The notes under the pieces: generated by a model
The model's input: the letters and a program-made list of their open reading frames with translations, nothing else
Database searches by the model: none
Told to the model about the DNA's origin: nothing
Translations under genes and position numbers: made by a program
Assembly (NCBI RefSeq): GCF_054482595.1
Contig: NZ_CM137008.1
Length of the DNA stretch: 64,000 bases
Strand: one strand, 5' to 3'
Shown: piece by piece, positions 47,122 to 48,108 of the stretch
Position numbering within the stretch: position 1 is the stretch's first letter
How the letters are laid out: each line of letters opens with the position of its first letter

Positions 47122-48081
47122 GTGGCACAACGAGATTATGTACGCCGCAGCCAACCGGCACCTTCGCGGCGAAAAAAGAGCACCTCACGGAAAAAGCAAC
47201 GAAATCTGCCTGCGGTTTCTCCCGCTATGGTCGCTATTGCTGCCGCCGTTCTTGTGACCTTTATCGGTGGTCTGTACTTCATTACGCATCACAAGAAAGA
47301 AGAGTCCGAGACGCTGCAAAGCCAGAAAGTGACCGGAAACGGACTACCACCAAAACCAGAAGAACGCTGGCGCTACATCAAAGAGCTGGAAAGTCGCCAG
47401 CCGGGTGTGCGTGCGCCCACAGAACCTTCTGCCGGTGGTGAAGTGAAAACGCCGGAGCAACTGACACCAGAACAACGTCAGCTTCTTGAACAAATGCAGG
47501 CTGATATGCGCCAGCAGCCAACGCAGCTGGTTGAGGTTCCGTGGAATGAACAGACGCCGGAACAGCGTCAGCAAACGCTACAGCGCCAACGTCAGGCGCA
47601 GCAATTAGCGGAACAGCAACGCCTGGCTCAGCAGTCGCGTACGACTGAACAAAGCTGGCAGCAGCAGACGCGTACGTCGCAAGCCGCGCCGGTACAGGCG
47701 CAACCGCGCCAGTCTAAACCGGCTTCTACTCAGCAGCCGTACCAGGATCTGCTGCAAACCCCTGCGCACACGACCGCGCAGTCGAAGCCGCAGCAAGCTG
47801 CGCCGGTTACTCGTGCCGCTGACGCGCCAAAACCGACGGCGGAGAAAAAAGACGAACGCCGCTGGATGGTGCAGTGCGGTTCGTTCAGAGGCGCGGAACA
47901 GGCAGAGACGGTACGTGCTCAGCTGGCGTTCGAAGGATTTGACTCGAAAATCACCACCAACAATGGCTGGAATCGTGTGGTCATTGGCCCGGTGAAAGGC
48001 AAAGAGAACGCAGACAGCACCCTCAATCGGTTGAAGATGGCGGGTCATACAAACTGCATTCGGCTCGCCGCCGGGGGTTGA
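47122..48081 (+). CDS. ftsN: Cell division protein FtsN (SPOR domain)
   Basis: 319 aa, GTG start, MAQRDYVRRSQPAPSRRKKSTSRKKQRNLPAVSPAMVAIAAAVLVTFIGGLYF...; Q/P-rich linker, C-terminal SPOR. Confidence 0.93.
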   Translation: MAQRDYVRRSQPAPSRRKKSTSRKKQRNLPAVSPAMVAIAAAVLVTFIGGLYFITHHKKEESETLQSQKVTGNGLPPKPEERWRYIKELESRQPGVRAPTEPSAGGEVKTPEQLTPEQRQLLEQMQADMRQQPTQLVEVPWNEQTPEQRQQTLQRQRQAQQLAEQQRLAQQSRTTEQSWQQQTRTSQAAPVQAQPRQSKPASTQQPYQDLLQTPAHTTAQSKPQQAAPVTRAADAPKPTAEKKDERRWMVQCGSFRGAEQAETVRAQLAFEGFDSKITTNNGWNRVVIGPVKGKENADSTLNRLKMAGHTNCIRLAAGG

Positions 48082-48108
48082 AACCCTCAAAATCCCCCCC
48101 ATCTATAA
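48076..48108 (+). promoter_or_regulatory. sigma-32 (heat shock) promoter of hslVU
   Basis: GTTGAAACCCTCAAAATCCCCCCCATCTATAAT: -35 TTGAAA and -10 CCCCATCT-type element, 13-bp spacer, ~70 bp upstream of hslV. Confidence 0.75.

Follow-up and report, generated by a model that had tools for sequence, protein, structure and literature searches.

Which holoenzyme reads the hslVU operon, where does its transcript start, and what does the GC-rich hairpin in its leader do? These questions are raised by the short spacer between ftsN and hslV in the analyzed stretch of 64 kb (hereafter, the window). The locus is of the E. coli chromosome, with the gene order priA-cytR-ftsN-hslV-hslU-menA-rraA in the list of open reading frames. 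The 501 bases around the promoter show 100% identity to many E. coli chromosomes, where ftsN and hslV are annotated, and among 5426 complete E. coli genomes, 5425 contain the same region. Window positions p map to 4170461 - p of MG1655 (NC_000913.3), whose reverse strand is the one shown here. The element is almost certainly the heat-shock promoter from which sigma-32 (RpoH) polymerase transcribes the hslVU (clpQY) operon of E. coli, and it is followed by a 61-nt leader. The features of the locus are listed in Table 1.

Table 1. Features of the ftsN–hslVU locus (window coordinates).
Feature	Position	Strand	Basis
ftsN CDS	47122..48081	+	ORF; NCBIfam FtsN equivalog, 707 bits; RefSeq annotation
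-35 element GTTGAAA (consensus CTTGAA)	48077..48083	+	sequence; GGGTTGAAA invariant in 48 aligned species; consensus from PMC10216364
Run of seven C, bridging spacer and -10	48094..48100	+	sequence
-10 element CCCCATCT	48097..48104	+	sole pattern match in window; CCC.A..T invariant in 48 species
TATAAT hexamer overlapping -10; possible weak sigma-70/sigma-38 -10, 20 bp from TTGAAA	48104..48109	+	sequence; PATSER sigma-70 type (Mendoza-Vargas et al., 2009)
Transcription start A, 61-nt leader	48113	+	SMRT-Cappable-seq 4122348; 454 5' end at -61; invariant A
Leader hairpin: 8 perfect pairs, closing G-U, UUUU loop	48118..48139	+	folding; covariation; PMC2681174
Rfam RF02401 'ClpQY_promoter' cis-regulatory match	48119..48176	+	63.6 bits vs gathering 42; E = 3e-13
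T/pyrimidine-rich tract TTTGTACTCTGTATTCG 3' of hairpin	48139..48155	+	T enrichment across species
Shine-Dalgarno AAGGGG, 7 nt 5' of GTG	48161..48166	+	sequence; conserved in cross-species alignments A1 and A2
hslV (clpQ) CDS, GTG start	48174..48704	+	ORF; NCBIfam HslV equivalog, 304 bits
hslU (clpY) CDS	48714..50045	+	ORF; NCBIfam HslU equivalog, 792 bits
hslVU intrinsic terminator, hairpin 50074-50095 and T run	50074..50099	+	terminator scan; SMRT-Cappable-seq TTS 4120362

Promoter elements and spacing

The promoter stretch of the window is gggGGTTGAAAccctcaaaatCCCCCCCATCTATAATtgcattatgCCCCGTACttttGTACGGGGtttgtactc. GTTGAA at positions 48077–48082 matches the CTTGAA consensus in five of six bases, the first base being G where the consensus has C. 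The -10 element CCCCATCT is an exact match to the sigma-32 consensus CCCCATNT, including the CC of the "extended -10" (its first two C). Counted in the usual way, from CTTGAA to CCCCATNT, the spacer measures 14 bp, the commonest spacing of sigma-32 promoters (PMC10044804); counted from TTGAAA, it is 13 bp.

The first-pass annotation had described a heat-shock promoter consensus upstream of hslVU, and all elements that it quoted are found here, with coordinates off by one or two bases. TTGAAA is present, but it occupies positions 48078–48083 rather than starting at 48076. The 13-bp spacer leads to CCCCATCTAT, with four C; the quoted CCCCCATCTAT, with five C, would imply 12 bp.

The pattern TTGAAA-N13/14-CCCCATNT matches once in the 64-kb window, and none of 100 dinucleotide shuffles contains any match. 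The possibility of a chance match was rejected, given the shuffle controls (for the motif and for the fold of the hairpin) and the cross-species conservation.

The run of seven C fixes the spacer length and is prone to slippage; in heat-evolved strains, a 2-bp deletion was acquired in this run (PMC10044804).

Conservation of the promoter and overlap with ftsN

Conservation was analyzed in 80 hslV loci of species representatives from Enterobacterales, Vibrionaceae, and Alteromonadales. The motif TTGAA(A/T)-N13/14-CCCCAnnT is seen upstream of hslV in 78 loci, each time with a spacer of 13 or 14 bp; despite this fixed spacer, the -10 element and the start codon are anywhere between 53 and 181 nt apart. 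The two loci that lack the motif belong to an insect endosymbiont and to a Vibrio with a degenerate -10. Among the E. coli copies, the most divergent ones vary only at third-codon positions of ftsN and at unstructured bases of the leader.

In a Vibrio sp. locus (L079), TCGCCTC occurs eight times in tandem ~80–130 nt ahead of hslV, directly 5' of a -35-like element, CCCTTGAAT. Its degenerate -10, CCTCATAT, has the same change as the engineered E. coli mutant that lost heat induction (see below).

The ftsN stop codon TGA (48079–48081) falls within the -35 hexamer (GGT TGA AA), and the non-consensus G at the first position of the hexamer is there because it is the middle base of the last glycine codon of FtsN. 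The last FtsN codon and the stop read GGT TGA in 66 of the 78 loci, with TGA within the hexamer; conservation of the -35 element is thus partly shared with FtsN coding. Nine loci with ftsN ending upstream keep both the motif and the spacing, and the Vibrionaceae among them read CTTGAA; hence, the promoter is constrained independently of the coding sequence. Due to the position of the stop codon inside the -35 element, no terminator of ftsN can be accommodated ahead of the promoter, and any such terminator would fall in the hslVU leader.

Transcription start and leader length

SMRT-Cappable-seq, which captures 5'-triphosphate ends, yields a unit at 4120362–4122348 on the reverse strand of NC_000913.3, covering b3932|b3931, and the hslV-hslU start at 4122348 was recorded with M9 as well as with rich medium (Yan et al., 2018, PMC6131387). 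Coordinate 4122348 maps to A48113 of the window, and 4120362 maps to 50099, just past the terminator hairpin. In a 454 survey, the 5' end of hslV was seen, in one read, at -61 from the start codon, that is, at A48113 (Mendoza-Vargas et al., 2009, PMC2760140). This A is the ninth base after the CCCCATCT 8-mer, in line with sigma-32 promoters starting ~7–9 nt past the -10 element; transferring the register of dnaK P1 to hslV predicts +1 at 48112–48113. A48113 is invariant in the 48 aligned species, 46 of which have a pyrimidine just before it. The comparison with mapped starts that the first-pass annotation had suggested hence agrees with a sigma-32 promoter.

Other values have been given for the start. 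Lien et al. (2009, PMC2681174) state a leader of 71 nt, which would start at C48103, inside the -10 element, and which also slightly mismatches their own primer. The RegulonDB start of hslV is apparently 6 nt away from -61. Both look like imprecise older values, and the 71 nt resembles a counting error; they conflict with the Cappable-seq position, yet none of them relocates the promoter. The 61-nt leader, for which start-site data, promoter geometry, and conservation agree, corrects the 71 nt of the main functional paper.

The operon has further starts. A second 5' end lies 449 nt upstream of hslV, at window position 47725 inside ftsN (three reads; its -10 resembles that of sigma-38; Mendoza-Vargas et al., 2009, PMC2760140), and Yan et al. 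(2018, PMC6131387) list an ftsN-hslV-hslU unit whose promoter had not been known before, as well as a unit of hslU only. Therefore, hslVU is transcribed from these starts as well. Downstream, read-through past the hslVU terminator continues into menA-rraA (Yan et al., 2018, PMC6131387). The terminator itself is GATGGGGCTGAAAGGCCCCATT followed by TTTAT, with the mapped 3' end at 50099.

On the opposite strand, an antisense RNA has its 3' end at window position 48114 (minus strand; MG1655 4122347, plus strand), with the score 1381 in Term-seq data (Adams et al., 2021, supplementary file 1). It sits 4–5 bases beyond the palindromic hairpin, as read on that strand.

Dependence on sigma-32

The sigma-32 reading of the promoter rests on published genetics in addition to the mapped start, and the two concur. 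Expression of hslVU, followed with lacZ fusions and northern blots, drops in rpoH and not in rpoS mutants; heat induction is gone in rpoH mutants, with some basal expression persisting (Lien et al., 2009, PMC2681174). A single C-to-T change in the -10 element, CCCCATCT to CCTCATCT, reduces expression by a factor of 1.7 and leaves no heat induction, and a mutated putative RpoS -10 has no effect (PMC2681174). In Salmonella, RpoH ChIP-exo shows hslV to be bound and heat-induced. A minor dissent comes from genomic SELEX (Shimada et al., 2017), where the hslV/ftsN spacer is listed under the RpoS holoenzyme (at ~48154, W3110 map position 4120330, intensity 3.6) and is missing from the RpoH table; only 18 known RpoH promoters were recovered in that study.

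The SELEX peak is one of several observations that could be read in favor of a main promoter of the sigma-70 or sigma-38 type, formed by TATAAT (48104–48109) with TTGAAA as the -35, the sigma-32 match being secondary. The pair GGTTGAAA and TCTATAAT was scored by PATSER as sigma-70 (Mendoza-Vargas et al., 2009, PMC2760140), rpoH mutants retain some basal expression (PMC2681174), and the 2-bp deletion in the C run of heat-evolved strains has the predicted effect of making a sigma-70 promoter at this site stronger (PMC10044804). However, TTGAAA and TATAAT are separated by 20 bp, outside the usable 16–18 bp; a sigma-70 promoter scan of positions 47000–50200 gives no match; and A48113 lies just 3 nt beyond TATAAT. 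Neither the rpoS mutation nor mutation of the putative RpoS -10 has an effect (PMC2681174), and in the alignment of 48 species TATAAT is not conserved beyond Enterobacteriaceae, whereas CCCCAT is. We consider a main promoter of this type very improbable. TATAAT may still be the source of the residual basal expression, and the reason for the C-run deletion in heat-evolved strains.

With sigma-32 as the main factor, the course of events is as follows. Sigma-32 RNA polymerase reads GTTGAA (48077–48082) and CCCCATCT (48097–48104) and starts at A48113; a temperature upshift provides more sigma-32 and, through it, more transcription of hslV and hslU. The transcript has five unpaired bases (AUUAU) at its 5' end, followed by the 9-pair GC-rich hairpin (48118–48139), which extends the life of the mRNA.

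Structure and conservation of the leader hairpin

The arms of the hairpin, CCCCGTAC (48119–48126) and GTACGGGG (48131–48138), are 100% complementary and enclose a TTTT loop; the first-pass annotation was right that a GC-rich hairpin is present, its span of 48120–48140 being slightly shifted. Folding of the 5' UTR, which had been proposed there as a check, recovers this hairpin, with the RNA fold at -17.0 kcal/mol compared to -5.6 ± 2.2 kcal/mol in shuffles (z = -5.3; none of 200 shuffles is as good). The match to RF02401 is full-length (model positions 1–57).

RNAalifold applied to the transcribed part of the alignment of 48 species yields the same 9-pair stem, with changes on both sides in nine of nine pairs. 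Overall, 93.8% of the cells are paired, compared to 78.3% in column shuffles and 37–52% in slid controls, and 72 cells are doubly changed, with 16.9 expected; none of 500 shuffles reaches any of the observed measures. In a divergent Escherichia lineage, a U-A pair of the stem is swapped for C-G. A GGGGG/CCCC helix, suggested by RNAalifold for an alignment that included untranscribed promoter DNA, was rejected as spurious; the transcribed-only alignment gives the 9-pair stem.

Across species, the stem starts mostly 4–7 bases past the transcription start. It is between 17 and 139 nt long, the long forms occurring in Serratia, Yersinia, Rahnella, Photorhabdus, and Xenorhabdus. The threshold of RF02401 is reached by seven of 19 divergent loci, and most of the other 12 fold a stable hairpin in this place (from about -10 to -29 kcal/mol); the model also missed both expanded loci that were searched (L042 and L067). 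The hairpin is more widespread across species than the RF02401 model detects.

The hairpin is expanded to 54–139 nt, ~60–180 nt upstream of hslV, in Photorhabdus, Xenorhabdus, Siccibacter, Mangrovibacter, and Pectobacterium zantedeschiae (loci L042, L046, L050, L052, L063, L067, L068, L029, L039, and L048). In P. zantedeschiae, the stem-loop seems to have taken up an insertion of ~120 nt.

Function of the hairpin

The effect on mRNA stability that the first-pass annotation considered for the hairpin is borne out by published deletion, disruption, and rebuilding of the stem. The mRNA level is lowered by a 40-bp deletion in the leader, by deletion of the repeat, or by poly-T substitution; the repeat deletion shortens the half-life of the mRNA; and a stem rebuilt with different bases restores the mRNA level (Lien et al., 2009, PMC2681174). 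Stabilization was thereby shown to come from the stem and not from its sequence (PMC2681174). In these tests, the stem was placed behind the vector leader of pBAD (PMC2681174). The natural leader has five unpaired bases in front of the stem. Classic 5'-terminal protection usually tolerates 2–4 such bases. The five unpaired 5' bases and the tests behind a vector leader therefore favor an obstacle to RNase E in reaching or scanning the mRNA, and the hairpin most likely blocks 5'-end-dependent attack by RNase E, or its scanning.

The second suggestion of the first-pass annotation, an effect on translation, found no support: pairing of the Shine-Dalgarno site does not exceed that in shuffled leaders. 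A related reading takes the leader for an RNA thermometer or another translational control, with the pyrimidines past the hairpin pairing to the Shine-Dalgarno site and releasing it at high temperature. In its favor, hslV is a heat-shock gene, most species have a pyrimidine tract past the hairpin, and the minimum-energy fold pairs CUCU (48145–48148) with AGGG of the Shine-Dalgarno site. Over 76 distinct leaders, though, the unpaired probability of the Shine-Dalgarno site is 0.41, compared to 0.33 in shuffled leaders, so that the site is, if anything, more open; this probability changes only from 0.40 to 0.42 between 30 and 45°C, and for only one leader in 76 does it rank within the bottom tenth of the values from shuffles of that leader. 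Lien et al. also report no temperature-sensitive segment (data not shown in that paper; PMC2681174). A thermometer of the ROSE or fourU type was rejected, as partition-function folding of the 76 leaders at 30, 37, and 45°C gave no signal against shuffles, and translational control by the leader in general is extremely unlikely. The hairpin probably has no role in the control of translation.

A possible second role of the hairpin is suggested by its T-rich tail. The 8 nt past the stem contain on average 4.47 T, where the remainder of the leader would predict 1.97; at least five T in these 8 nt are seen in 19 of 47 species, with runs of T6–T7 in Erwinia, Pantoea, Tatumella, and Pectobacterium. 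The hairpin with this tail might double as an intrinsic terminator or insulator of ftsN or cytR-ftsN, at which transcripts coming from cytR or ftsN would stop in part, with heat-shock transcripts reading through and keeping the stem as a stabilizer. Transcripts made by sigma-32 start five bases upstream of the stem and would escape termination, which would be start-site-dependent read-through. This would fit the ftsN stop within the -35 element (66 of 78 loci) and the T-enriched tail across species. It would also fit the loci with ftsN ending 19–104 nt upstream, nine of nine of which have a separate strong hairpin between ftsN and the promoter. Moreover, SMRT-Cappable-seq lists both a cytR-ftsN unit ending after ftsN and the ftsN-hslV-hslU read-through unit (PMC6131387). 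Against a dual role, no sense-strand 3' end is found near the hairpin in a complete Term-seq listing of curated 3' ends from E. coli. The E. coli tail contains just 4–5 T in 8 nt, and the hairpin, despite its GC-rich stem, is not flagged by the terminator scan. Further, the leader hairpin is retained in Budvicia and in two Pantoea species that already have the upstream hairpin. On balance, we regard the dual role as rather unlikely; if it were true, one hairpin would have opposite effects on two overlapping transcription units.

Comparison with known systems

The promoter and the hairpin are both already known: this is a textbook heat-shock promoter, the RNA element is curated in Rfam, and the essentials are all published. 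The sigma-32 promoter of E. coli hslVU was reportedly described earlier by Chuang et al. in 1993. The hslVU (clpQY) promoter published by Lien et al. (2009, PMC2681174) is the same locus, with the same sequence and elements and no biological difference, the leader being given as 61 nt here and 71 nt there. RF02401 has the same 8-pair stem as the hairpin of the window, and no difference is seen for this window.

The ompA and papA mRNAs have a stable 5' stem-loop that prolongs mRNA life. Like these stabilizers, the hslV stem acts by structure and not by sequence (PMC2681174); unlike them, it is preceded by five unpaired bases and was tested behind a vector leader.

The closest structural reference for the promoter is the dnaK P1 scaffold of the cryo-EM structure of the sigma-32 open complex, with CTTGAA at -35 to -30, a 14-bp spacer, and CCCCATTT at -15 to -8 (PMC10216364). 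The two promoters share (C/G)TTGAA, the 14-bp spacer, CCCCATNT, and a start A preceded by C (PMC10216364). They differ in the first base of the -35 element, G in hslV and C in dnaK P1, and in the start, which is the ninth base past the 8-mer in hslV and the eighth in dnaK P1; and hslV, unlike dnaK P1, has the overlapping TATAAT.
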